Origin: an uncultured virus (IMG/VR IMGVR_UViG_3300034102_003702)
Lineage: Duplodnaviria > Heunggongvirae > Uroviricota > Caudoviricetes
Reading direction: 5' to 3' (one strand)
Length of the DNA stretch: 64,000 bases
Virus record (IMG/VR): IMGVR_UViG_3300034102_003702
Span: 1 to 64,000 of that record
A program made the translations under genes and the position numbers. The notes under the pieces were generated by a model. That model ran no database searches. It was not told where the DNA came from and was given only the letters and a program-made list of their open reading frames with translations. Below are positions 23,973-46,768 of this stretch, piece after piece. Numbering within the stretch: position 1 is the stretch's first letter; the number at the start of each line of letters is the position of its first letter.

Positions 23973-26900
23973 ATGCCAAATAGTTTTAATACACCAATTA
24001 GTATAGATTCTATTAGAGTTGGATATGTTGATCCATCTCTTGGGTTTGTTGATGGCATTACAGTCTGTCAAGCAAATGATTATGCGTACAAAAATCCTGG
24101 AACAGTATTTGTTTTTAGGGATGGTAGCAATAATATTAAGTACTTAACTATTAATGAAGTTAATTTATTAACTACAAATGACATTGTATCTACAACAAGC
24201 ACTTGTGGTGGATATCAAGAAATAAAAGAATGCGGTCCACCAAAGATTCAAATTTTTGGTGGCGGTGGAGTAGGTGCTGTAGGAAATCCAGTTGTAGGAG
24301 AAGATGGTGCGATTCTTGCAGTAGATTTGGTAAGCGGTGGATTTGGATATCAGTTCCCTCCAATTACTCAAGCAAAAGATGAATGTCAATATGGAACTGG
24401 TTCAGTATTAAGAGCAATTCTTGGCGAAACTGTAGAAGAATATGAAACCTTTGAGGGAGAAGAAGACTTTGAAGAATATGAATTATGTGAGGATACTGAT
24501 GTTGGATATGGTATAAAATACGGACCCAATGGAGAAAATTTAGGTGATTGGGACCCAGATTCATACACAAGCACGGCAAAAGATCCCATTCAAAATGAGA
24601 TTGAAAAGTATCAAGAGTCACTTACAAAATATAAAAATCCTTTTTGGACAACAAGAAAAAAACTACCAGTAAGAATTAGTTCTTTAGGCAAAGATTTTTC
24701 TTCTTATGAGGTGACATTTCCTACTTGGAATGACTTTATGAATTCTTATGCAATTTCTCCAGTTGCTCCTTCAAATGTTGCTGGTAGTGATTTTGCAGGA
24801 AGAATATTTACATTTGAATGGGAAGAAAATTTTCCGTATGATGGCGAATATGTTTTTAGAGGACTATGTGATAATCTTGCAAAACTGTATATTGATGGTG
24901 ATTTAATCTCCGATTTAAAAGGATTTAATGATTCGGTGCAGCCAATTCAAAAAACATTAAAATCTGGTGTTTATCTTATTAGAATTGACTTATTGAATAT
25001 TCCAATAACAACAAATACTTCAACAACAACTTCAGTCACTTCTAAAATAAATGCTAAATTTGCAAAGAGAGGAAATGATTTTTATCTCGATGTTACTGGA
25101 AGTGGCACTGGTGAAGTAGATTTATTAATGGAAATTGATGATTCATCTTATATTGCAGGACTTGCTGCGAGAGAAATTATTATTCCTTCGGATAAGGGCA
25201 AAGTAAAATTTACAAGGGCAACTGGCACACCTAAAGTAGAAAACATTAAGAAGACTATTAATGTTACTGGAGGTCAATCTTATGGTCCAATACAAATATT
25301 AGGAGCAACTATTGGAGTTGCAAAACCAACTGTAAATAGCAACAAAATTGCTTTATATGATGCTGCTGGAACTGATGAAAATATCAAGTTTCTTATTACA
25401 AATGTGAAAGGAAATGCAACCACAACTTCAATTAATACGTCAGCATCTACCGCAAGTGTTGCATCAATTACTACTCAGAATCCTAAAGATTATGTACTAC
25501 CAGAAGCAAAAATTATTGAGAAGAAAGGTCAATATTATATTCAAGTTGGTGGAACAGGTGTAGTAAATATAACATTTAAAATGGATGTGAATGATGCCTA
25601 CTATATTGCAGGAATAGCAGCATCAGAAATTAGAGTTCCTTCTGAAAGTGGTACTATTTCATTAAAAAGAAAGTCAACTGTAAGTATCAACGGACAATAT
25701 TTTCCAAATGCATATGAAAAAGAAGAGACCATTAAAAAGTCTGGTAAATTTGCTGGAGGTAAAACTTATGGTCCTATTGAAATAATCAACCAAAATCCAA
25801 CAGGTCTTCCTCCAAAACTATCTGGTTCAAAAAAACTTGAACTCAGAGATGCTGAAGGAGATGATGCAAATATTAAGTTTGAAATTGATAACGTAGAACC
25901 ACAAAAATCTACAGTTTCAAATATTGCTACAGGTACAGTTGTATCATCAAAATCTTGGAATCAAAATCCAATGGGCATTTCAGTAACAATTGATGCTCCA
26001 CCACAACCTGTTCCTCAAGAAAAACCTCCTGTACAAGAAGGTAGATGTCCACCAAATCCTATTTGGTCTACAAGATTTCCAAGTGCAAAGGAAAATTGGT
26101 ATCCAGTTCGTTTTCCCAAATGGTCTAAATTTTTGAATAGATATGCACTATCTCCAGTAAAACCATTAGACACTCCTGGAAGTGATAGTGGTGGAATATC
26201 TTATTCAAATTCTTGGAATGTCAATGCTCCTTTTAGAGGATATTATAAGGTTCGTGGAGAGGTTGATGATATTGCAAAAATTTATGTTGATGGAAATTTA
26301 GTTCTGGATCTATCAAGAAGAGTTGGGAAAACTAGTGGTTCGGAAAAAGTTTTATTGGAAGAAGGTAATCATACGATAAAAGTTGAGGTTGAAAATTATT
26401 CTTCCGAATCTTTCTCAACAATAAATCAAAAAATCTTTAGTACTCTTGACTGGCAATCTCCTCTGGCATCTACATCTTCTAATATAAAGGCAAAGTTTAT
26501 TCAGAAAGGAAAAGATTATTATTTGGATGTATCTGGATTTGGATCTGGCGAAATTTCTTTTGTGATGGATGTCAATGACGCACCTTACATCGCTGGTCTT
26601 GCTGCGAAGGAAGTTATTATTCCTTCAGACGGTGGTAAGTTAATGTTTACTAGAACTGGTATATCTCAAAGAGATTCTATTGCATATTTTAGTATCCCAA
26701 AAGAAGAGACCATTAAAAAGTCTGGTAAATTTACTGGAGGTAAAATTTATGGACCAATACAAATATTAGGTGCTACAGTTGGTGCAGGAACTCCAAAAGT
26801 TTTCAATAATAAGTTATCTCTATTTGATGCTGCTGGAACTGATGAAAATATCAAACTTGAAATTTCTAAAATAGAACAAACTGCAAAAAATTCAGTTACG

Positions 26901-28076
26901 TCAAGTTCTGTTTCTTCTGGTACATCAAAGGATGGTGTAATATATCAGGGTCCAGAAATTTTTCATCACATTCAAACCACAGGTGGTTCAACAGGTAAGG
27001 GCTGGGGAGACTTTATGAATAAGTATTCAGTCTCTCCAAAAGTATTTAAGAGTATATCCGAACCTGACGAAAGAATAAATGGAACGTTTACTTTAACTTG
27101 GAAAAACGTAAAATTTCCTGAAGATGGGGATTACAGAGTTAGATTTCAGGCAGATAATATTGGTGTTCTTAAAATTGGTGATAAACAAGTTCAAAAGACC
27201 ACAGATTTTTATGGAGATCCTGCAACAATTCAAACAAATATAACTGCAGGAACATATGATATTGTAATTGAACTGACGAATATCAAAGATAGAACCAATA
27301 AGTTTTCAAATAATCCAACAGGAACTTCCTTGGTTATTGAAAAGGATATATCTGTAAGAGATAGTTCATCAAAATCTTGGACAGAAAATCCGATTGGAGT
27401 TTCTGCGGTTTTAATTTCTCCACCCTGTCCAAAGAAAATTAGTGGTAAGGGCGTAGTAGAAAAAATTATTATAGATGAACCTGGTAACGGATATCTTGCA
27501 CCACAAGATCCTACAATTGGATATCCAGTTATTGTTAAATTGAAAGAAGTACTTGTTGATAATGGTGGAATCAATTATAATTGTGGTGGCGATCAACTTA
27601 AAATTACACCAGATAATGGTGCAAAATTGAGTTATACCTGCAATGCCTTTGGTGTTATTAATACAGTGACTGTTGATGATTCTGGCACACCTTTTACAAG
27701 TTACCCAAGAATCACTCTTCCATCAGAAACCGGAGTAAATGCAAAGTTTACACCAGTCTTTGAAGTAATAAGAGATCCTTTAGATCCGGCAATATCTCCA
27801 AATAATATTATTCAAGTTACTGATTTGGTTGGTCTCAAGCAAACTGGATATGTCGATGGTCGTGCATATTATGGTGCAGTATATTATGATGGAGGTGTTA
27901 AGTATGCGGGATACTATAAGACAATTGGTACACCAATTCGTGTCTATAATACTCTTCAGGAGAGTATTACTACTAAGGTAACTACTCCTGCAAGTGCAAT
28001 TGAAAGATCTGGTACGGATGTTACAAGTAATGATCCACGTCTCAATATTCCAGGAACTCCAGAGAATCTAATTTAA
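23973..28076 (+). CDS. Large virion structural protein with PA14-like and other internal repeats
   Basis: Three W..F.N.Y..SP...G.Y.....D domains and three AK....G..YL.V.G.G...YIAG.AA.E repeats. Confidence 0.7.
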   Translation: MPNSFNTPISIDSIRVGYVDPSLGFVDGITVCQANDYAYKNPGTVFVFRDGSNNIKYLTINEVNLLTTNDIVSTTSTCGGYQEIKECGPPKIQIFGGGGVGAVGNPVVGEDGAILAVDLVSGGFGYQFPPITQAKDECQYGTGSVLRAILGETVEEYETFEGEEDFEEYELCEDTDVGYGIKYGPNGENLGDWDPDSYTSTAKDPIQNEIEKYQESLTKYKNPFWTTRKKLPVRISSLGKDFSSYEVTFPTWNDFMNSYAISPVAPSNVAGSDFAGRIFTFEWEENFPYDGEYVFRGLCDNLAKLYIDGDLISDLKGFNDSVQPIQKTLKSGVYLIRIDLLNIPITTNTSTTTSVTSKINAKFAKRGNDFYLDVTGSGTGEVDLLMEIDDSSYIAGLAAREIIIPSDKGKVKFTRATGTPKVENIKKTINVTGGQSYGPIQILGATIGVAKPTVNSNKIALYDAAGTDENIKFLITNVKGNATTTSINTSASTASVASITTQNPKDYVLPEAKIIEKKGQYYIQVGGTGVVNITFKMDVNDAYYIAGIAASEIRVPSESGTISLKRKSTVSINGQYFPNAYEKEETIKKSGKFAGGKTYGPIEIINQNPTGLPPKLSGSKKLELRDAEGDDANIKFEIDNVEPQKSTVSNIATGTVVSSKSWNQNPMGISVTIDAPPQPVPQEKPPVQEGRCPPNPIWSTRFPSAKENWYPVRFPKWSKFLNRYALSPVKPLDTPGSDSGGISYSNSWNVNAPFRGYYKVRGEVDDIAKIYVDGNLVLDLSRRVGKTSGSEKVLLEEGNHTIKVEVENYSSESFSTINQKIFSTLDWQSPLASTSSNIKAKFIQKGKDYYLDVSGFGSGEISFVMDVNDAPYIAGLAAKEVIIPSDGGKLMFTRTGISQRDSIAYFSIPKEETIKKSGKFTGGKIYGPIQILGATVGAGTPKVFNNKLSLFDAAGTDENIKLEISKIEQTAKNSVTSSSVSSGTSKDGVIYQGPEIFHHIQTTGGSTGKGWGDFMNKYSVSPKVFKSISEPDERINGTFTLTWKNVKFPEDGDYRVRFQADNIGVLKIGDKQVQKTTDFYGDPATIQTNITAGTYDIVIELTNIKDRTNKFSNNPTGTSLVIEKDISVRDSSSKSWTENPIGVSAVLISPPCPKKISGKGVVEKIIIDEPGNGYLAPQDPTIGYPVIVKLKEVLVDNGGINYNCGGDQLKITPDNGAKLSYTCNAFGVINTVTVDDSGTPFTSYPRITLPSETGVNAKFTPVFEVIRDPLDPAISPNNIIQVTDLVGLKQTGYVDGRAYYGAVYYDGGVKYAGYYKTIGTPIRVYNTLQESITTKVTTPASAIERSGTDVTSNDPRLNIPGTPENLI

Positions 28077-31309: not shown

Positions 31310-31939
31310 ATGAAATCGGATTTTTATATAGATAAAGTTGGAAAGGATGAAGTAAAAAACTTACTTTATACTCACCATTATCTAAAAGACAAATCCAAAG
31401 ATTTTAAATCAGGTTTCAATTATGGACTTTACCGCAATTGTTTCACAGATGTCCTTAGGATTGGCAACTGCCTTGGTGTTTGCATTTTTACTGGTCTCCC
31501 AGTTCCAGAAATTGCCGTAGGTGCTTTTGGATTGAAGAGAGATGAGCAAGAAGGTTTATTTGAACTTTCCCGTCTCTGTATTCATCCAGAAGTTCAGAAA
31601 GAAGAATATAATATCACATCTTGGTTTGTAAGTAGATGTATTAAGAGGTTTAGAAAAGATGCCACGGTTCGTGCTGTTCTTAGTTACGCTGACTCTAATC
31701 ACCACTCTGGAATTATATACAGAGCTTGTAATTTTCAGTACTACGGTTTAACTGACGCTAAAAAAGATTTCTACTATGCTGATGGAACTAAACATTCACG
31801 AGGTAGTGTCAAAGGTGCTGATGGTGAGTGGCGTGATAGGAGTCGTAAACATCGGTATCTTATGGTTTTCGACAAAAAACTTAAACAACAGTTGACTTGG
31901 AAAGAACAAGAATGGTATAATATTAAAGGCGATACTTAA
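31310..31939 (+). CDS. Mom-like (GNAT-fold) DNA-modification protein
   Basis: HHYL, ELSRLC, SWFVSRC, VLSYAD..H.G.IYRACNF.Y.G. Confidence 0.75.
   Translation: MKSDFYIDKVGKDEVKNLLYTHHYLKDKSKDFKSGFNYGLYRNCFTDVLRIGNCLGVCIFTGLPVPEIAVGAFGLKRDEQEGLFELSRLCIHPEVQKEEYNITSWFVSRCIKRFRKDATVRAVLSYADSNHHSGIIYRACNFQYYGLTDAKKDFYYADGTKHSRGSVKGADGEWRDRSRKHRYLMVFDKKLKQQLTWKEQEWYNIKGDT
31892..31921 (+). promoter_or_regulatory. Sigma70-like promoter within the 3' end of the mom-like gene
   Basis: TTGACT, 18 nt spacer, TGgTATAAT. Confidence 0.6.
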
Positions 31940-37874: not shown

Positions 37875-40800
37875 ATGTTAAACAAACAGACAACTTTAGA
37901 TCTAAACGGTCCAATTCTATCATTTACTACAAATCCAGTTGGAGCAGCAACTACTAATGGTGGATCTGCAACTTTTATCGGTATTGCAACAGCAACATTT
38001 CCCATACAAACTCCACCAAATCCTGCAATACCCACTGGATATATTTCTTATCGATGGTATGATCAAAATGGACCATTAACTGATGGTGCAAATGTAACTG
38101 GATCTGCAACTACGACATTAACTATTTCTAATGTCGTTAGTCCAACTGATCATAATAAACAGTTTTATTTAAATGCAGATTATATACCATCTGCATATGG
38201 AGAAAATCCAATTACAGTTGGTACTGCCAGATCAACTGGAAATGCAATAAATGATCCAATTTCATCTAGTAGTGCAGTTTTAACAGTCTATCCAACATTA
38301 TCGGTAACAAAACAACCTGGCATTAGTACTATTGGACAAAACTCATATACAAGATTTGTTACTAATGCATCAATTACAGATACTAGTCAAGGAAATATTT
38401 CTTATCAATGGCAATTAAATGGTTCTGATCTTTCGGACAGTGCAACTATACAAGGTTCTAAAACAAATGAACTTTTAATTTCTTTACCAAATATTGGGAT
38501 TAATACTGTTAGAGCAAAAATTACTCATCCCACTGCTTCAAACTCTCCATTATATACAAATAATGCCAATCTTGATGTAGTTGCTCCTAGAAAAATACTT
38601 AACGTTGAAGTAATTCCGGATGATAACAGTACTGAGGCACTATTATATTCTTGGAATATTGTTACTCAAGGTCCATATACAATAAATCCAGATCAAATAC
38701 CACCTGGAAGTATTCTTACATTTTATGCACCAGAACTAAGTATTGAGGCATATATTGATATGTACGGAACTGCTGGAGCAGATTATGGAACTTTTGTTGG
38801 AGGAAGAGGTGGAGTATCTACAATCAGATTAACATTAAATAAAAATGAAGAATATGCTGTCACGCCTCTTTCTCTAACTAAAAATGGTGGAGGTGTTTTT
38901 CTATATAAAAAAGCAAAATTAATTGCTGTTGCTGGTGGAGGAGGAAATGCAGGAAAAAATGGTAGTGGCGGTGACGGTGGTGGCGTTAACGTAGCAGGTC
39001 TTACTGCCAGTGGGTCTGGTGGAAGTCTTTATGCTGCAGGAACATTACCCTCAAATGGTATATTTGGTTCTAGTGTTCAATTCGTAACACTTAAATCTGG
39101 AGATACTTTAGCAATTGCTCCCAACGGAGGTAGAGTACTACCTTGCACTAAAGGTGAATATTGGGCCACTCTAGGATTTTCTGCATGTGCTGATGTTGGA
39201 AATACAAAGTACTATACACCTACTGCAGGAGTAAGTACAAATACGGCAACAATTGCAAGAGGATATAAACCAGGATATGGAATTAATGGCACTGCAGGAC
39301 AAGGAATAAATTCTGGAGGCAATGGCGGCAGTGGTGCAACTGGCGGCAATGGTGGTAACGGTGGAGGTGGTGGAGGTGGAAGTGGATATAGTGATGGGTC
39401 TGTAATAATTACTTCTACGCAACAAGGTGGTAATGCCGGTCTTGGAAAAGTTGTAATTCGCGAATATGTACCACCCCCACCACCTCCTCCACCACCGCCG
39501 CCACCACCACCATCTTGTCCTGCTCCATGGACAAAGATCTTAATGGCAGATGGAACTCTTAAGAATGCAGGCGATTTAGTGGTTGGAGATATTCTTAAAA
39601 CGCAGCATAAAAATACTTTAGAATGGGGAGAGTATCCAATTACTTATAAAAAAGTAAGTCCTTCAGAAAGATTAAAACTCACTTTTGAAGAGTCTAACTT
39701 TACTTGCTCTCCAACTCATAAAATGTATGTTGATGGTAAAGGTTGGATATTAGTTACCGATATGGTAATTGGTGATGTTATAAGTAATCAAAAACTATTG
39801 TCAGTAGAACCTGCTGAAAGTGGAGATGTTATTGTTATTGAAGTTGATGAGGCATATACTTTTATTGGTGAAGGATTGTTATCGCGTACAGTGAAGATTG
39901 AATTAACAGAATCTCCACTGCCAATTTTTAATCCATTTCCAAAGATTTTGATGTCAGATAAGACTCAAAAAAATGCTAGAGATTTGAAAGTTGGTGATTT
40001 AATTAAAACTCAACATGAACATACTTTAGAATGGGGAGAGTATCCAATTACACATAATTCAACCTTACAGTCGGAAAGATTAAAACTTACTTTTGATAAT
40101 GCTAAGGTTATTTTTTCTCCAACTCATAAAATGTATGTTGAAAATAAAGGTTGGACTAGAGTTTGTGATATGGCAATTGGTGATGTTGTAAGTAATCAAA
40201 AATTAATAAGTGTGGAGAGTGTTGAATATGGTGATGTTGTTTCAATTGAAGTTGATGATGCACATACTTTTATTAGTGACGGATTATTATCGCACAACAG
40301 AAGAAATCCTCCTCCACCACCGCCACCACCGCCAAAATCACCGCCACCACCTCCATTTGTTCTCCCACGAACACAGCAAGACCCCTTGTTAGCATTTGTG
40401 TCACCACCACCGCCACCGCCACCACCAAAAGCACCACCACCAAAAGCGCCAAAGCCACCCGCACCAGTTGCGCCACCAGTTGCGCCACCAGTTGCGCCAC
40501 CAGTTGCGCCACCATCACTGGCACCATCTTGTCCTGCACCATGGGCAAAGATATTAATGTCTGACGGGACTCTTAAGAATGCGGGTGATCTAAAAGTTGG
40601 TGATTTAATAAAAACTCAAGATGAACACACTTTAGAATGGGGTGAATACTCTGTATTAAAAGTTTCTATCGTTCAAGAAGATAGATTTAAAATGAAATTT
40701 GACCACAAAGATTTGGTCTGCTCAACATCTCATAAAATGTATGTTGAAAATAAAGGTTGGACTAGAGTTTGTGATATGGTAATTGGGGATATTATAAGTG

Positions 40801-41378
40801 GACATACCTTACTTGAAATTGATGATTATGAATATGGAGATGTCGTTGCAATTCAAATTAAGGGTGCTCACACTTATATCTGTGAAGGATTATTATCTCA
40901 CAATTTAAAGATAGTTACTCCACCAGTAACGAATCCACCTGTAACGAATCCATCACCACCAATTACATCCTGTCCTGCTCCATGGACAAAGATCTTAATG
41001 GCAGATGGAACTCAAAAGAATGCAGGTGATCTAAAAGTTGGTGATTTAATTACAACTCGACATGAACATACTTTAGAATGGGGTGAATACTTAATTGATT
41101 ATGTTAAGCAAGTTGATTCTGAAAGATTGAAAATTATCTTTGATCATGTTGAATTTACCTGCTCACCTACTCATACATTTTATAGTGAAGAAAGTGGTTG
41201 GGTTTTAGCTTGTAGTTTAAAAGTTGGTGATATTATTTCTGGGCATACAATTATAAAAATTGAAAGTGCAGAACCTGGAAAGGTTGTTGCAATTCAAGTT
41301 GATGGTGGTCACACCTATATCTCAGAAAACTTATTATCTCACAATAAACTAGTCTCACCACCACCAACAGGCAAATAA
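37875..41378 (+). CDS. Ig-like + Gly-rich protein with four tandem Hint domains and proline-rich linkers
   Basis: ISYRWY/ISYQWQ Ig-like strands, Gly-rich block, then four KILM.D...GD...S..H...LLS(HN/RT) units; AGGAG RBS. Confidence 0.85.
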   Translation: MLNKQTTLDLNGPILSFTTNPVGAATTNGGSATFIGIATATFPIQTPPNPAIPTGYISYRWYDQNGPLTDGANVTGSATTTLTISNVVSPTDHNKQFYLNADYIPSAYGENPITVGTARSTGNAINDPISSSSAVLTVYPTLSVTKQPGISTIGQNSYTRFVTNASITDTSQGNISYQWQLNGSDLSDSATIQGSKTNELLISLPNIGINTVRAKITHPTASNSPLYTNNANLDVVAPRKILNVEVIPDDNSTEALLYSWNIVTQGPYTINPDQIPPGSILTFYAPELSIEAYIDMYGTAGADYGTFVGGRGGVSTIRLTLNKNEEYAVTPLSLTKNGGGVFLYKKAKLIAVAGGGGNAGKNGSGGDGGGVNVAGLTASGSGGSLYAAGTLPSNGIFGSSVQFVTLKSGDTLAIAPNGGRVLPCTKGEYWATLGFSACADVGNTKYYTPTAGVSTNTATIARGYKPGYGINGTAGQGINSGGNGGSGATGGNGGNGGGGGGGSGYSDGSVIITSTQQGGNAGLGKVVIREYVPPPPPPPPPPPPPPSCPAPWTKILMADGTLKNAGDLVVGDILKTQHKNTLEWGEYPITYKKVSPSERLKLTFEESNFTCSPTHKMYVDGKGWILVTDMVIGDVISNQKLLSVEPAESGDVIVIEVDEAYTFIGEGLLSRTVKIELTESPLPIFNPFPKILMSDKTQKNARDLKVGDLIKTQHEHTLEWGEYPITHNSTLQSERLKLTFDNAKVIFSPTHKMYVENKGWTRVCDMAIGDVVSNQKLISVESVEYGDVVSIEVDDAHTFISDGLLSHNRRNPPPPPPPPPKSPPPPPFVLPRTQQDPLLAFVSPPPPPPPPKAPPPKAPKPPAPVAPPVAPPVAPPVAPPSLAPSCPAPWAKILMSDGTLKNAGDLKVGDLIKTQDEHTLEWGEYSVLKVSIVQEDRFKMKFDHKDLVCSTSHKMYVENKGWTRVCDMVIGDIISGHTLLEIDDYEYGDVVAIQIKGAHTYICEGLLSHNLKIVTPPVTNPPVTNPSPPITSCPAPWTKILMADGTQKNAGDLKVGDLITTRHEHTLEWGEYLIDYVKQVDSERLKIIFDHVEFTCSPTHTFYSEESGWVLACSLKVGDIISGHTIIKIESAEPGKVVAIQVDGGHTYISENLLSHNKLVSPPPTGK
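39516..41345 (+). repeat. Four Hint-domain repeats (39516-39890, 39924-40298, 40530-40904, 40971-41345)
   Basis: Each is 375 nt (125 aa); shared DNA blocks such as ACTTTAGAATGGGG in all four. Confidence 0.9.
40464..40514 (+). repeat. 12-bp tandem repeat CCAGTTGCGCCA x4 (encodes PVAP)
   Basis: Four perfect copies read directly. Confidence 0.9.
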
Positions 41379-41382
41379 AAAT

Positions 41383-41952
41383 TCAATCGTTATAAACGGG
41401 AGCGGCATGTGGATCATAAGTCAAAAAAACGCTTAATGTCTGCCTAACGCCGCTCTCAACTTTTTTAACTCCATGTGTGAATTTTAAATCTGCTGGATGA
41501 ACAACTAGCATTCTTGGTTCTGGTTTAACTTCTATATTCAAATTTGGATAATATAATTCTCCACCAACAAAAGAACTATTAAAATAAAGAACACTTCCGT
41601 GCGATCTCCAAGGAGATGAGTTTGGAGTAACTCCATCTTGCTCAATATTATCTGCATGTGGAGTAAGTTCTACTTTATTTTCCCACCTAACAAATTGTGG
41701 ATATTCTATAAAAAGTTTTTGGTCAGATATAGAAGTTTTCTCTACAACACTTCTAATTGATACAATTAACTTAATTAATTTTTCTCTAACTTCTTCTTCC
41801 TTAATTGAAGAATAATATATGCATCTTTTGGACCAGTAATCTTCTGAACTTATATGTTGATCATATGAAGATTTATTTTCTTCTATCCAGTTTAAAAAAT
41901 AATCATTTTCTTCTTCTGTAATAAAATTTCTAATTACCAATGGATAAGACAT
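41383..41952 (-). CDS. 2OG-Fe(II) oxygenase, prolyl-4-hydroxylase-like
   Basis: PHAD (HxD), SVLYFN..F.GGEL, THGVKKVESGVR (distal His and Arg). Confidence 0.88.
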   Translation of the reverse strand: MSYPLVIRNFITEEENDYFLNWIEENKSSYDQHISSEDYWSKRCIYYSSIKEEEVREKLIKLIVSIRSVVEKTSISDQKLFIEYPQFVRWENKVELTPHADNIEQDGVTPNSSPWRSHGSVLYFNSSFVGGELYYPNLNIEVKPEPRMLVVHPADLKFTHGVKKVESGVRQTLSVFLTYDPHAAPVYND

Positions 41953-42033: not shown

Positions 42034-43650
42034 ATGGCAATTAAAAAAGCGTTTGTTATAAAAGACGGATTAGAAGTTAATTCTGACGTTCTTATTGTAA
42101 GCGGTCAAACTAAAAATGTTGGCATAGGTTCTACTATTCCAAGAGTGGAATTAGATCTACGTGGTAGGTTTATTGCAACAGATTCTTATCTAACAGGAAT
42201 CTCAACTGTTATAAACGAACTAAACGTCGGAACGAATGGAACGGTTCTTACAGCATTAGGTAGTGGTTCTGTTGGTGTAGGAACAGCACTGCCAAACTAC
42301 TTATTAGATGTTCGTTCTTCAGTCTCTACAGGACAAACAGCACTTTATGTTCAAGGCGATACAAGTGTTACTGGAAAGTTGGATATTGGGGGTAGTATAT
42401 CCTTTAGTGGGTTTACTGCACTTAATGCCAATATCACTGGTATTGCAACAATTGGGACGGTAAAAATATTTTCTGGTATTGTAACTGCCACAAGTACAAG
42501 TGGTGTTGTAACTTATTATGGTGATGGTTCTAAACTTACTAATATTTCTGCTTCTTCTGCTGTCTATGCCATAAATTCTGGTATAGCAACTTATGCAACC
42601 TCTAGTGGTATTTCTAGTACTGCTACTTATGCATTAACTGCAGGAATTTCTACTGCTGCAACTTATGCGACTAGTGCTGGTATAGCAACTTATGCAACCT
42701 CTAGTGGTATTGCAACTTATGCAACTAGTGCTGGAATTTCTTCTGCACTTACGGCAGCAGCATCAGTTAATACTACTGGTATCATAACCGCAGCATCATT
42801 TGTTGGAAATGGTTCTGGATTAACAAATGTTCCTATAAGTGGTATTGCTACTTATGCAACCTCTAGTGGTACAGCAACTTATGCTACTTCTAGTGGTATT
42901 GCTACATCAGTTATGGGTGGTATTGCATCTGTTGCACAATTAAATGTTTCTGGTGTTTCTACCTTCTCTGGAATAACAACTTATACAGCATCCTTATTTG
43001 GAACTACCGCAAGTTTTACTGGCGTTGTTACCGCATTATCATTCTCTGGCTCTGGCGCAAACTTAACTGGACTTGTTGCTGGTGTCGGAATTGCAACTGC
43101 TGGAGGAACAGTAGGAACTGGAGCAACATTCTTAGACTTTAGAGGTTCGGGAATTTCTACTGTAACAGTTAGTTCTGGAATCGCAACTATTAATATTAGT
43201 GGAGGTGGTGGAGGTGGAGTAACAATAAGCGATGATATCTCAACAAATGCAACTAGGTATCTTACATTTACTGACTCTACATCAGGATCTATTTCTGCAG
43301 CAAATGTTTCTTCAACAAATCTCCAATTTAATCCACTATCTGGAAACCTAGCAGCAACTCAATTTACATCACTATCAGACGCAACTCAAAAAACTAACGT
43401 AAGACCTATAGAAAATCCGATTGAAATTACGAAACAACTTGATGGAGTTAGGTTTGATTGGATAAATAACAATAAACCTTCACTTGGTTTGATTGCTCAG
43501 GAAGTAGAAAAAGTACTTCCTGAACTCGTTGAGACCAATAGCGATGGCATTAAGTCAGTAAGTTATTCCAATATGGTTGGACTTTTAATTGAAGCAATCA
43601 AAGAACAACAAGTTCGTATTGAAGAACTGGAGAGAAAATTAGATGCCTAA
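42034..43650 (+). CDS. Tail fibre with C-terminal intramolecular chaperone (peptidase S74-like)
   Basis: VGIG repeats, GIATYATSS repeats, SD...K.N.RPI...W...GLIAQEVEKVLPELV...LIEAIKE coiled coil. Confidence 0.88.
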   Translation: MAIKKAFVIKDGLEVNSDVLIVSGQTKNVGIGSTIPRVELDLRGRFIATDSYLTGISTVINELNVGTNGTVLTALGSGSVGVGTALPNYLLDVRSSVSTGQTALYVQGDTSVTGKLDIGGSISFSGFTALNANITGIATIGTVKIFSGIVTATSTSGVVTYYGDGSKLTNISASSAVYAINSGIATYATSSGISSTATYALTAGISTAATYATSAGIATYATSSGIATYATSAGISSALTAAASVNTTGIITAASFVGNGSGLTNVPISGIATYATSSGTATYATSSGIATSVMGGIASVAQLNVSGVSTFSGITTYTASLFGTTASFTGVVTALSFSGSGANLTGLVAGVGIATAGGTVGTGATFLDFRGSGISTVTVSSGIATINISGGGGGGVTISDDISTNATRYLTFTDSTSGSISAANVSSTNLQFNPLSGNLAATQFTSLSDATQKTNVRPIENPIEITKQLDGVRFDWINNNKPSLGLIAQEVEKVLPELVETNSDGIKSVSYSNMVGLLIEAIKEQQVRIEELERKLDA

Positions 43651-44857
43651 TCAGTTTAATTCTCCAGAAGGAGATTTAGAAAATTACTTTGTGAGTGAGT
43701 ATTGGTTAATTGACCAATGGGTTGGTGATACTTTATGGACTTGGGGAGAAGGATTTAATGGACGGTTAGGAAATAATGCAACATCCAATAGATCCACTCC
43801 AGTCACTACATTTGAGGGAGGAACCAACTGGAAACAGGTTTCTTATGGATATGGACATGCAGCAGCAGTGAAAACTGATGGAACTTTGTGGGTATGGGGA
43901 GGACGTTTTGGTGGAGCACTGGGAACAAACGATTTAGCTTCCAATAGATTAGTTCCCGTTCAAACATTCGCAGGAGGAACCAACTGGAAACAAGTTTCTT
44001 GTGGTTATAAAAGAACAGCAGCAATTAAGACAGATGGAACTTTGTGGGTGTGGGGAGACAATACTGCAGGAGTATTAGGAACCAATGATACAACACAAAG
44101 AAACACACCAGTAACCACATTCGCAGGAGGAACCAACTGGAAACAGGTTTCTTTAGGATATGGTAGTAGTATGGCAGCAATCAAAACTGACGGAACTTTG
44201 TGGGTTTGGGGTGGTAATGATGCAACTTTGGGAACTAATGATGCAATATTCAGATACACTCCAGTCACAACATTCGCAGGAGGAACCAACTGGAAACAAG
44301 TTTCTTCCGGCGCTTCATTTCTTGGTTGCAGTGCAGCAATTAAAACTGATGGAACTTTATGGGTTTGGGGAGATAATTCTTATGGAGGACTAGGAACCAA
44401 TGACACAAATAAAAGATCAACTCCAGTCACAACATTCGCAGGAGGAACCAACTGGAAACAAGTTGATGTTAGTCCGGGCAATATGGCAGCAATCAAAACC
44501 GATGGAACTTTATGGACTTGGGGCCGTAATCTTTATGGGCAACTAGGAATCAATAACACAACTGCAAGATGCACTCCAGTCACTACATTCGCAGGAGGAA
44601 CTAACTGGAAACAAGTTGCTGTTGGAATTGGTGGATCATCAACGACATTTAGTATGATATCAATTAAAACTGATGGAACTCTATGGACATGGGGCGCAGA
44701 TTTAGGCACGGGGATGTTGGGAACTAATGATGCAACACAAAGAAACACACCAGTAACCACATTCGCAGGAGGAACCAACTGGAAACAGGCTACATCTGGC
44801 AGGACCTCTAAAGGCGCAATCACATCAGGCACTGATCCTACCTACTTCATCGCATAA
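43643..44857 (+). CDS. RCC1/BLIP-II-like seven-bladed beta-propeller protein 1
   Basis: Seven repeats of PVTTFAGGTNWKQV...AAIKTDGTLW.WG. Confidence 0.88.
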   Translation: MPNQFNSPEGDLENYFVSEYWLIDQWVGDTLWTWGEGFNGRLGNNATSNRSTPVTTFEGGTNWKQVSYGYGHAAAVKTDGTLWVWGGRFGGALGTNDLASNRLVPVQTFAGGTNWKQVSCGYKRTAAIKTDGTLWVWGDNTAGVLGTNDTTQRNTPVTTFAGGTNWKQVSLGYGSSMAAIKTDGTLWVWGGNDATLGTNDAIFRYTPVTTFAGGTNWKQVSSGASFLGCSAAIKTDGTLWVWGDNSYGGLGTNDTNKRSTPVTTFAGGTNWKQVDVSPGNMAAIKTDGTLWTWGRNLYGQLGINNTTARCTPVTTFAGGTNWKQVAVGIGGSSTTFSMISIKTDGTLWTWGADLGTGMLGTNDATQRNTPVTTFAGGTNWKQATSGRTSKGAITSGTDPTYFIA

Positions 44858-44874: not shown

Positions 44875-45528
44875 ATGTACGCACTCGTTAATGGTCAGGA
44901 ATTACTTTTAGGACCAATCGCATTCAACTATAGAATGATTAATGATGAACTAGAAGAACTTGAAGTAGATTATAGAGTGACTTCACAAGATTATCAAAAT
45001 GTTCCTATTGTGATCACAGAGGATATTAAGATTCTTCCTGCAAGAAATGAGATCCCAGAGTATAATCCAAGATTTCAAACAGCATCTCAAACAAGTCATA
45101 CAATTGCAGATGATGAAGTAGTCTTTGTTTATACTGTTGAAGATAAAACACTTGGGCAAATTAAAGAAGAATATAAATTAGGTGTAAAACCAGAAAGACA
45201 AAGAAGAGAAAATACATCAATTGAAGTTACTATTAATAATTCTGGAATTACAGTATCAACAGATAGAGAAAATCGTCTAGCACTTATTGCAAAATATATT
45301 GCTGGACCTGGACCTCATAACTTTAAGTTTGATAATGGAACTTGGTTGCAAATTACAACAGAAGATTTACAAACCATTATTCAAGCAGTGGATACAAAAG
45401 TCCAAGAAGCATATGATTGGGAACTTGCAAAACTTCAAGAGATTGATGCTTGTGAAACTAAAGAAGAAGTTTATGAAGTAGAGATTGTTCCTGCTATAAA
45501 AAGACCTGGAGTAGTTGGAGATGCCTAA
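44875..45528 (+). CDS. Tail fibre assembly/adaptor-like protein (DUF4376-like C-terminus)
   Basis: R..RE....V.TDRE.R...FKF..G.W...L......V...VQ.AYDWE; position after fibre. Confidence 0.55.
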   Translation: MYALVNGQELLLGPIAFNYRMINDELEELEVDYRVTSQDYQNVPIVITEDIKILPARNEIPEYNPRFQTASQTSHTIADDEVVFVYTVEDKTLGQIKEEYKLGVKPERQRRENTSIEVTINNSGITVSTDRENRLALIAKYIAGPGPHNFKFDNGTWLQITTEDLQTIIQAVDTKVQEAYDWELAKLQEIDACETKEEVYEVEIVPAIKRPGVVGDA

Positions 45529-46768
45529 TCCTAATACCAACTTTAAAAACAGTAGTGGTCTTGATTTAGGTAATGTATTAATTACCAAAGAATACTTGAT
45601 GACTGTGTATCCGCAGATTGCAAATCAGTTGATTACTCCAGAATTATGGAGTTGGGGTCGTAACAGTGCTGGACAACTCGGAGACAATACAACAACCAAT
45701 AGAGTGACTCCAGTTACAACTATTGGGGGAGGAGCAAATTGGAGACAAGTTTCTTGTTCAGGTGTCGGTAATGCCATCACTGGAGCAATCAAACTTGATG
45801 GAACACTATGGACTTGGGGTTGGGGACAAGACGGGATTCTGGGGAATAATAACGGTGGGTCTTTTGCATGGCCCTCACCATCCACAACATTTGCTGGAGG
45901 AACCAATTGGAAACAAGTTTCTGTTTCTCGTAGTCATTCTGCAGCAATCAAAACTGATGGAACCTTATGGACTTGGGGACTTAATAGTAATGGTCGGCTA
46001 GGAGACAATACATCATCCACTAGACTCACTCCAGTCACCACATTTGCAGGAGGAACCAACTGGAAACAAGTTTCTTGTGGATGTAATCCATATGATGTAT
46101 TCATGGGATGCACTGCAGCAATCAAGACTGATGGAACTTTATGGACTTGGGGTCGCAATGCTTATGGGCAACTCGGAGACAATACAACAACCAATAGAGT
46201 GACTCCAGTCACCACATTTGCAGGAGGAAACAACTGGAAACAAGTTTCTTGTGGAGGACAATTTGTTTCAGCAATCAAAACCGATGGAACTTTGTGGGGT
46301 TGGGGGTATAATAATTTAGGGCAACTGGGAACCAATAATACAACTAATAGACCTACACCAGGCACAACATTTGCAGGAGGAACCAACTGGAAACAAGTTT
46401 CTTGCGAAGGTGGATTTTCTTCATCTGCAATCAAAACTGATGGAACTTTATGGGTTTGGGGAGTTAATTCCGGAACTTTGGGGACTGGCAGTGATGTAAG
46501 TATTAAACTTACTCCAGTAACTACATTTGCTGGAGGAACGAACTGGAAACAAGTTTCTATGGGAGAAGGGACTACGGCAGCAATCAAAACTGATGGAACT
46601 TTGTGGGGTTGGGGTCGCAATGCTTATGGTCAGTTAGGAACTAGTAGCGCAATAACCCCAATATGTTCACCAGTCATAATATTCGGAGGAACTAATTGGA
46701 AACAAATTTCTTCTAATGCAGTGAACATGTCGGCAATAAGAACTTCAGATGATTTACAAGGTATCTAA
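45521..46768 (+). CDS. RCC1/BLIP-II-like seven-bladed beta-propeller protein 2
   Basis: Seven repeats of the same framework. Confidence 0.88.
   Translation: MPNPNTNFKNSSGLDLGNVLITKEYLMTVYPQIANQLITPELWSWGRNSAGQLGDNTTTNRVTPVTTIGGGANWRQVSCSGVGNAITGAIKLDGTLWTWGWGQDGILGNNNGGSFAWPSPSTTFAGGTNWKQVSVSRSHSAAIKTDGTLWTWGLNSNGRLGDNTSSTRLTPVTTFAGGTNWKQVSCGCNPYDVFMGCTAAIKTDGTLWTWGRNAYGQLGDNTTTNRVTPVTTFAGGNNWKQVSCGGQFVSAIKTDGTLWGWGYNNLGQLGTNNTTNRPTPGTTFAGGTNWKQVSCEGGFSSSAIKTDGTLWVWGVNSGTLGTGSDVSIKLTPVTTFAGGTNWKQVSMGEGTTAAIKTDGTLWGWGRNAYGQLGTSSAITPICSPVIIFGGTNWKQISSNAVNMSAIRTSDDLQGI

Follow-up and report, generated by a model that had tools for sequence, protein, structure and literature searches.

The gene considered here, an open reading frame (ORF) at 37875..41378 (+ strand) that is open throughout and encodes 1167 residues plus the stop codon, lies in a 64,000-nucleotide stretch of DNA from an uncultured virus (positions 1 to 64,000 of the IMG/VR record IMGVR_UViG_3300034102_003702; hereafter the window); the ORF list and the gene order of its orthologues mark its product as a fibre-region structural protein, and it carries at its C-terminus an array of four Hint (Hedgehog/intein) domains. 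Two of the eight catalytic ends of this array appear dead, and they face each other across its shortest linker (11 residues), the one between Hint1 and Hint2. The array is probably a set of three self-processing units, namely the fused Hint1-Hint2 pair, Hint3 and Hint4, which would remove themselves from the fibre protein with cleavage as the main outcome.

As for the identity of the four units, a hidden Markov model (HMM) built from them locates them at residues 546-681, 682-817, 884-1019 and 1031-1167. Among the curated profiles, Pfam reports Hom_end_hint (E 4.3e-12, 46.9 bits, cut-off 32.1) and Intein_splicing (E 2.1e-10, 41 bits, cut-off 35.8) on the protein, and NCBIfam places its intein-containing model in four stretches and intein_Cterm at residues 790-808 (23 bits, cut-off 15.6). 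Run against solved structures, the four-unit profile matches BUBL1 BIL2 of Tetrahymena (E 2.7e-7), the bacterial intein-like (BIL) domain 2lwy of C. thermocellum (E 9.5e-5) and the gp41-1 intein. Structure prediction of the array with AlphaFold2 (AF2) covered Hint1-Hint2, to which Hint3 and Hint4 are 55-61% identical; the model has a predicted local distance difference test score (pLDDT) of 90.4 and consists of two separate all-beta domains, for which Foldseek returns first the BIL2 of the Tetrahymena BUBL1 locus (target template modelling (TM) score 0.77, root-mean-square deviation (rmsd) 1.9 Å) and then the gp41-1, DnaB and RecA mini-inteins, the C. thermocellum (Cth) BIL and Hedgehog (1at0, 6tyy), with target TM of 0.74-0.83. 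All four units belong to the Hint superfamily; the earlier note on this DNA, made from the letters alone, had recognized them as such, and the HMM, the curated profiles and the Hint1-Hint2 model all bear it out. Because the two modelled domains are separate and their junction is of low confidence (predicted TM score, pTM, 0.59), nothing in the model points to a merged Hint1-Hint2 unit, and a merged or domain-swapped fold was rejected. The AXH domain (PF08517), which Pfam matches at residues 892-964 (33.3 bits), was rejected too, and the match was taken as cross-matching given its recurrence on many Hints of the relatives. The same AXH model scores up to 123 bits on the Hints of distant multi-Hint proteins (P0064, P0164, P0202, P0105), which suggests that it cross-matches, or has kinship with, the Hint fold.

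Between its catalytic limits each unit is 125 residues long, and the alignment gives each its own set of catalytic residues. Hint1 (C548-T672; 39516..39890, +; AF2 pLDDT >90) keeps Cys1 and the block-B motif SPTH, and has Tyr at the block-F His position (AYTF) and Arg-Thr in place of the terminal His-Asn (LLSRT). The inner linker, VKIELTESPLP (11 residues; 39891..39923, +), is identical in the two known alleles and is predicted to be uncleavable from both sides. In Hint2 (I684-N808; 39924..40298, +), Ile replaces Cys1 and Phe replaces the Cys before S-x-x-H, while the block-B His (SPTH), the block-F His (AHTF) and the terminal His-Asn (LLSHN) are kept. Then come linker A (R809-S885, 77 residues, Pro-rich; 40299..40529, +), Hint3 (C886-N1010; 40530..40904, +), linker B (L1011-S1032, 22 residues, Pro-rich, fast-evolving; 40905..40970, +) and Hint4 (C1033-N1157; 40971..41345, +); Hint3 and Hint4 have the complete catalytic set, with C1, S-x-x-H, AHTY/GHTY and LLSHN. 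The protein ends in the 10-residue tail KLVSPPPTGK, which holds no cargo domain (41346..41378, +, with the stop codon). Since its block-F His is Tyr and its His-Asn is Arg-Thr, the C-terminal site of Hint1 is presumed dead, and the same holds for the N-terminal site of Hint2 because of its Ile for Cys1 and its Phe before S-x-x-H. Cys1 stands 11 residues ahead of the Asp-Gly of the first strand, which we take to be the position of Cys1 in inteins. The coordinates, the unit and linker lengths and the residues named in the earlier note proved exact in the HMM and the alignment, and its complementary losses, at the C-terminal end of Hint1 and the N-terminal end of Hint2, hold in the alignment and in the second allele.

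In Hint domains, Cys1 and the block-B His give the N-terminal thioester, the block-F His and the terminal His-Asn carry out C-terminal cleavage, and canonical splicing needs a nucleophile at position +1. The terminal Asn of Hint2, Hint3 and Hint4 is followed by R, L and K, respectively (Hint3 has Lys at +2; Hint2 continues as RRN, with no Lys nearby), and because none of these is Cys, Ser or Thr, canonical splicing is excluded; the absence of a +1 nucleophile, noticed from the start, and the catalytic layout support the proposal that such Hints cleave or transfer in the manner of BIL or Hedgehog domains. The class 1 inteins differ also in being inserted within a conserved site of the host protein, since here the orthologues end at the array start and nothing conserved follows the Hints. 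The layout appears to be that of the type-A BIL domains: an N-terminal Cys/Ser with the block-B T/S-x-x-H occurs in Hint1, Hint3 and Hint4 (the block-B His in 4/4), the C-terminal His-Asn in Hint2, Hint3 and Hint4, and no Cys, Ser or Thr stands at +1. Like the window Hints, type-A BILs (e.g., Cth BIL 2lwy) have a mini Hint fold with an N-terminal Cys, the block-B His and His-Asn; they have neither a Cys, Ser or Thr at +1 nor an endonuclease insert, and they are located in the variable parts of proteins that are extracellular or structural (PMC4031507). The sequence similarity is however weak (2lwy, as above). The window family is set apart by the opening CP[AD]P of its units, their closing LLSHN and the Lys at +1 or +2, and its carriers are fibre proteins and giant structural proteins of phages.

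In the proposed mechanism, the N-terminal site of each unit would use Cys1 and the block-B His to drive an N-to-S acyl shift that yields a thioester, and its C-terminal site would use the block-F His and the terminal His-Asn to drive Asn cyclization. Six bonds would be cut: S547-C548, N808-R809, S885-C886, N1010-L1011, S1032-C1033 and N1157-K1158. The thioester at S547-C548 would be resolved by water or a thiol to give a mature protein of 547 residues, equivalent to the orthologues of cultured cyanomyoviruses with a short polyproline tail added, and the Hints and spacers would be by-products. As for its purpose, the array may be a removable folding or assembly aid, by analogy with the Peptidase_S74 module of the next fibre gene, or else a self-removing appendage.

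Regarding the N-terminal body, it begins with two tandem I-set immunoglobulin (Ig)-like domains (residues ~11-238; 37905..38588, +), and in the AF2 model (pLDDT 88, built on 54 aligned sequences) this pair matches tandem Ig domains, such as MuSK Ig1-2 (Z 13.4) and Robo2, by Foldseek and VIA-align. A glycine-rich domain follows (residues ~261-533; 38655..39473, +); its fold is that of the ALK glycine-rich domain, as VIA-align superposes model residues 265-533 on human ALK 7ls0_C (Z 14.6, rmsd 2.6 Å, 187 aligned, 24% identity), and phrog_24848 matches residues 189-530 (E 1.7e-124), whereas the Pfam model for ALK/LTK-type glycine-rich domains (PF12810) gave no match to the protein. The predicted mature body ends with the 14 prolines P533-P546 and S547, the residue before Cys1 of Hint1 (39471..39515, +). 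In a tblastn search against phage records, the first ~470 residues match hypothetical proteins of the Synechococcus and Prochlorococcus myoviruses Bellamy, P-TIM68, S-SM2 and SynMITS9220M01 (33-40% identity), and in the three records inspected (Bellamy, P-TIM68 and S-SM2) the orthologous gene directly follows a 'fiber' or 'tail fiber' gene of ~1940 residues. These three orthologues (821, 564 and 845 residues) stop a few residues past the glycine-rich domain and have no Hint. The body family is very large (of 8000 candidates scored, 1277 reach E <= 0.001); in the best 120 metagenomic relatives the region past the glycine-rich domain is highly variable, with tails of 0 to >300 residues and of several unrelated kinds, often reached via Pro-rich spacers, and a Hint is found in one of the 120 (P0324, single copy). 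The label of adhesin-like protein had been given to the product on first inspection: its two Ig-like domains and glycine-rich domain are confirmed, while the label itself should probably give way, in view of the gene order of the orthologues, to that of a conserved fibre-region protein of cyanomyovirus-like phages.

The family of the four units is large and phage-borne. In a profile search that covered 1.84 billion representative proteins, 2830 had E <= 0.001, 514 of them reaching <= 1e-10 and 91 of them <= 1e-30; residues were counted in 214 units of at least 80 bits from 194 proteins, window included, drawn from the best 150 of this search and 64 from a word-based search. Cys1 is kept in 178/180 units, the block-B His in 214/214, the block-F His in 202/214 and the terminal His-Asn in 210/212; Ser or Thr occupies +1 in 7/212 and Cys in none, Lys occupies +1 in 166/210 and +1 or +2 in 201/210 (96%), and Ser or Thr occupies +2 in 101/210. 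A scan of IMG/VR gave 77 loci, of which the lineage of the window accounts for 11; across the remaining 66 (69 ORFs, 70 units), a Cys starts 66/68 evaluable units, and His-Asn followed by K or xK closes 69/69 evaluable ends. The carriers are very large proteins: Pfam, run on 37 relatives, finds PT-HINT (PF07591) in 18, several of them below the cut-off, and DUF4815 in 8, and PHROGs assigns 21 viral carriers to phrog_358 (a giant protein of unassigned function; 11), to tail proteins, including the central tail fibre J (2), or to none (8). For eight of the relatives, a cluster look-up yielded no informative name. The Hints are placed between modules or at the extreme end of the protein; at most 15 residues follow the last Hint in 26/192 proteins, and in six viral ORFs the stretch after it is no longer than 6 residues (L060, L064, L071, L085, L087, L090). 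Since many members end right after the Hint, a cargo-less Hint at the fibre end is a recurrent design, and even where the tail is of only 2-6 residues, His-Asn and the Lys at +1/+2 are kept. The 30 residues on either side of the family units contain 15-18% Pro, compared with 6% overall in the same proteins.

Against this background the inner junction of the window stands out. If two ends were lost at random, they would face each other across any junction in 3 of 28 arrangements and across the inner one in 1 of 28 (arithmetic), so that the random-placement odds for facing dead ends alone are a weak argument. Outside the window, Cys1 is lost in 1/176 units and His-Asn in 1/208, both losses being in P0123, a fragment which, together with Hint1 and Hint2, contains all the units lacking Cys1 or His-Asn; set against such a family, two losses in one protein look striking. 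An assembly artefact was rejected, as the inner junction lies within single difference-free contigs in four lake or freshwater metagenome runs from different studies. Contig 'joints' that skip ~800 nucleotides between polyproline-coding tracts (39509 to 40311) would, taken literally, be a deletion of Hint1-Hint2, and this was rejected as well, the joints being taken for artefacts of low complexity: they are flanked by no more than 18-30 nucleotides of CCN repeat, and unrelated contigs raise the depth there 30-fold (likeness set at 88%).

Other tandem arrays do not share this trait. At all the other tandem junctions evaluated (16/16, with linkers of 4-478 residues; P0073, which was unreadable, was left out of the count), both His-Asn and Cys1 are kept, and because these junctions are intact on both sides, the loss of the inner ends is, among the sequences compared, private to the window lineage and not a rule of tandem Hints; the conserved inner-end loss that the earlier note would have expected among homologues was not seen, even at linkers down to 4-7 residues. 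Metagenomic arrays of two to five Hints occur in distant proteins (P0105, P0164, P0064, P0202 and P0205), those of P0105, P0164, P0064 and P0202 having three to five Hints with intact catalytic ends. In some of the arrays among P0164, P0202, P0205 and P0105, His-Asn abuts the Cys1 of the next unit directly or within a few residues, so that each Hint might provide the +1 nucleophile for the one before it.

As for the history of the array, a tree of 179 units groups the four from the window in a single clade (support 0.977), within which Hint1 and Hint2 are sisters, and places the Hint of the body relative P0324 in another (support 0.934); a Hint therefore entered the same position of the body family at least twice, and in the window lineage a single Hint was gained and then amplified to four copies, now 55-63% identical to one another. 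Two alleles are present in IMG/VR: L008-L010, L016 and L018 match the window, and L011-L015 and L017 are a variant whose protein is ~95% identical. Both have four Hints with the same dead residues (the block-F Tyr, Arg-Thr, Ile for Cys1 and Phe before S-x-x-H). From 5 to 18 substitutions per Hint unit, the ratio of non-synonymous to synonymous rates (dN/dS) between the alleles is 0.095 for Hint1, 0.36 for Hint2 (4 synonymous and 6 non-synonymous changes), 0.06 for Hint3, 0.088 for Hint4 and 0.12 for the four pooled; the body has 0.23, linker A 0.31, plus indels, and linker B ~1.3. All four Hint units are, as judged from this comparison, under purifying selection.

The claim that Hint1 and Hint2 act as one unit, active only at its outer ends, is helped by the second allele with its same substitutions, by the purifying selection and by the retention of the five other active ends; it is not helped by the model, with its two separate domains, nor by the restriction of the loss to one lineage. 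The linkers behave differently. Linkers A and B differ by indels between the alleles, and the only conserved part of linker A is a 16-residue island, FVLPRTQQDPLLAFVS, which reads F[VT]LPRTQQDPLLAFVS across the alleles and has no match outside the window lineage (9 hits in 1476 sequences, all of this lineage); a fifth, relic Hint in linker A was rejected, given that the HMM finds no Hint there and the island is lineage-private. The Pro-rich segments thus look like spacers rather than products: it had been proposed that processing releases them as defined peptides of 77 and 22 residues, and linkers that evolve so fast, with their indels and the dN/dS of linker B, argue against it.

The same data bear on whether the array does anything for the phage at all. 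Recombination at Pro-rich spacers could have brought in a Hint that slippage then multiplied, and it would be harmless through its self-cutting; the Pro-rich, low-complexity DNA that flanks the units, the tandem copies that arose repeatedly, the independent gain at the same position in P0324 and the orthologues that do without a Hint would all be in keeping with such a neutral passenger. It is nonetheless improbable, as purifying selection acts on all four units, even those irrelevant to the release of the body, and five further ends retain their catalytic residues despite the divergence of the units. Moreover, BIL-type Hints have, to our knowledge, no homing endonuclease and no known means of selfish spread.

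Alternatively, the Hints might remain uncleaved parts of the virion, strung like beads along stiff polyproline rods at the tip of the fibre, and would there serve for binding or carry latent thioester 'warheads' for nucleophiles of the host surface. The array does occupy the place where the orthologues have a C-terminal module of high variability, a position typical of receptor-binding tips, and the predicted architecture is one of folded domains joined by Pro-rich spacers. Yet residues whose sole role in known Hints is self-cleavage are conserved almost completely, no variable surface is seen (dN/dS of 0.06-0.09 in Hint3 and Hint4), and the thioesters of characterized Hints hydrolyse within hours, so that a display of this kind is very improbable, more so than any other reading considered here.

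Several points weigh against self-removal by cleavage. If the release of the body alone mattered, everything past Cys1 of Hint1 would be free to decay, and instead Hint3, Hint4 and the C-terminal site of Hint2 are intact and under strong purifying selection; Hints with trivial tails keep their His-Asn and Lys; inner cleavage is not generally dispensable, because the 16 other tandem junctions keep both sites; the selection estimates have few substitutions behind them; and cleavage by this Hint family, like its timing and its purpose, is itself inferred. The retained downstream units and the His-Asn and Lys before such short tails fit a coupled, ligating reaction better than cleavage only.

Such a reaction, in which each unit would act like a type-A BIL or like BUBL BIL2, is possible, though clearly less likely than cleavage. 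The thioester would be attacked by the alpha-amine freed through Asn cyclization, or else by the epsilon-amine of a Lys, be it at +1/+2 or in another chain or protein nearby; either the body would end up attached to linkers A and B and the tail, in a product of 656 residues with a ~120-residue polyproline-type tail, or an isopeptide bond would cross-link it to a virion protein. The near-invariant Lys of the family (201/210 units), its persistence with His-Asn before tails of 2-6 residues and the presence of exactly one N-site and one C-site per family unit, and per each of the three window units, speak in its favour. So does BUBL1 BIL2, the closest solved relative by structure and sequence, which forms Lys isopeptide conjugates without ATP (PMC8616854), and splicing by aminolysis is possible in type-A BILs, according to PMC4031507. 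That same text has cleavage products dominating in type-A BILs; in addition, no Lys follows Hint2 (RRN), the thioester and Asn sites of Hint1-Hint2 lie in separate domains of undefined relative position (AF2 pTM 0.59), and the linkers that would be ligated are fast-evolving and variable in length. Cleavage with self-removal stays the preferred reading.

Several known systems resemble the array in part. In the type-A BILs, which have His-Asn and no +1 nucleophile, cleavage is dominant and splicing can occur when the freed amine attacks the thioester (PMC4031507). BUBL BIL2 (PDB 6y75, 6tmm), the best solved match by sequence and fold, also sits in a polyprotein with repeated BIL domains, and its thioester is used for Lys isopeptide bonds without ATP (PMC8616854, section 2.4); there, however, ubiquitin-like cargo flanks each BIL, whereas the window array has Pro-rich spacers of 11, 77 and 22 residues in which Pfam finds no domain, and BUBL is from ciliates, which are eukaryotes, while the array is from a phage. 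We know of no report of a fused, half-dead BIL pair in BUBL.

PT-HINT (PF07591), the most frequent Pfam match among the relatives (18/37), likewise places a Hint after a structural or trafficking part, and the toxin tables of PMC3482391 list HINT proteases and tail-fibre repeats together; PF07591 nevertheless gave no match to the protein at E up to 1, and PT-HINT toxins have a C-terminal toxin module, in contrast to the 10-residue tail of the array. The Hedgehog/Hog proteins share with it a functional N-terminal part, a C-terminal Hint, a Cys1 thioester that releases the N-terminal part and the fold (1at0, 6tyy), but the window Hints have no sterol-recognition region, number four against one in Hedgehog, and keep in three of the four units the His-Asn whose terminal reaction Hedgehog Hints do not have. 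Finally, Peptidase_S74 is a self-cleaving module at the C-terminal end of fibres and tailspikes, removed, as would be the window Hints, after its work is done; its fold and chemistry are unrelated (a Ser-Lys dyad versus a Cys thioester plus Asn cyclization), and a chaperone role for the Hints would be an analogy to Peptidase_S74 only. In P0069, P0036-P0042, P0091, P0094 and P0096, the tail of 38-63 residues behind the Hint was recognized by eye to have a Peptidase_S74-like start; it reads SDIRLKTNI in P0069, and one group has Cys at the place of the Ser nucleophile (CDIRTKDDI).

Searches of the literature outside subscription journals gave no paper that describes this Hint family, or an array of Hint or BIL domains on proteins of cyanophages or phage fibres, and PMC5259590 and PMC7824862 mention Hint for classical inteins only. 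The earlier note, which knew of no described phage system with this layout, needs amending all the same, as the units belong to a large phage-borne family, distant four-Hint arrays exist and the ciliate BUBL is a precedent. What is already known comprises the Hint fold, its chemistry and the idea of repeated BILs within one polyprotein; what is new is the phage fibre-region carrier, the Lys +1/+2 signature of the family and the fused pair of half-dead domains.

As for the genome, the source record is viral, of 74 kb, with an estimated completeness of 33% and a GC content of 32-40%. The stretch was found in 24 lake or freshwater metagenome runs among those listed, 21 of which contain at least half of its words; there was no RNA run among the listed sequencing runs containing it. 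Because of the body orthologues in cyanomyoviruses and this occurrence in lakes and fresh water, the phage is, to judge by its sequence, an uncultured freshwater relative of the T4-like cyanomyoviruses. The array gene itself had no megablast match in 50,697 phage records, and in the tblastn search its Hint part matched one record only, a faecal phage (31.8% identity); within the 74-kb record there are no further Hint copies, all four matches being in this gene. Upstream of it lies an ORF of 1944 residues and downstream a convergent gene of 189 residues, followed by more fibre-like genes.

The convergent gene (41383-41952, -) encodes a 2-oxoglutarate (2OG)-Fe(II) oxygenase (PF13640, E 4e-7), and its nearest solved sequences are prolyl 3-hydroxylase 1 (E 4e-4) and bacterial prolyl 4-hydroxylases (E 0.05); the enzyme might hydroxylate the polyproline spacers of the Hint-array protein, against which stands the 2OG oxygenase that S-SM2 has a few genes downstream of its spacer-less orthologue. 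The next gene (42034-43650, +) codes for a fibre-like protein of 538 residues, rich in Gly, Ser, Thr and Ala, that ends in the self-cleaving intramolecular chaperone Peptidase_S74 (residues 448-499, E 3e-14), a second self-processing module, unrelated to the Hints, within the same fibre gene cluster. Further along the fibre region, 43643-44857 and 45515-46768 (both +) encode RCC1-like beta-propeller repeat proteins (PF25390, E 1e-55 and 3e-64). On the other side, just upstream of the 1944-residue fibre gene, a protein of 209 residues (31310-31939, +) matches the Mom family over its full length (PF25680, E 2e-22), and a structural-region protein of 1367 residues (23973-28076, +) has a PA14 domain, a carbohydrate-binding module (E 7.9e-12).

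In conclusion, the purpose of bacterial intein-like domains has been an open question ever since their first description, and the locus offers a natural experiment on it: three apparently intact processing units, one of them made from two half-dead domains, on a carrier whose Hint-free orthologues are known. At its boldest, the family with the LLSHN-K ending would be an ATP-independent protein ligase, whose thioester would be resolved by the Lys at +1/+2 or by one in an adjacent chain; the fibre would thereby be stitched to its own Pro-rich segments or cross-linked into the virion by the array, and the Hint1-Hint2 pair would be a two-domain version that splits the thioester-forming from the amine-releasing site. 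This proposal is doubtful, and less likely than ligation in the window array as such; if ligation through the conserved Lys were true, it would add a new step to the maturation of virions and be a new protein-ligation chemistry that protein engineering could use.

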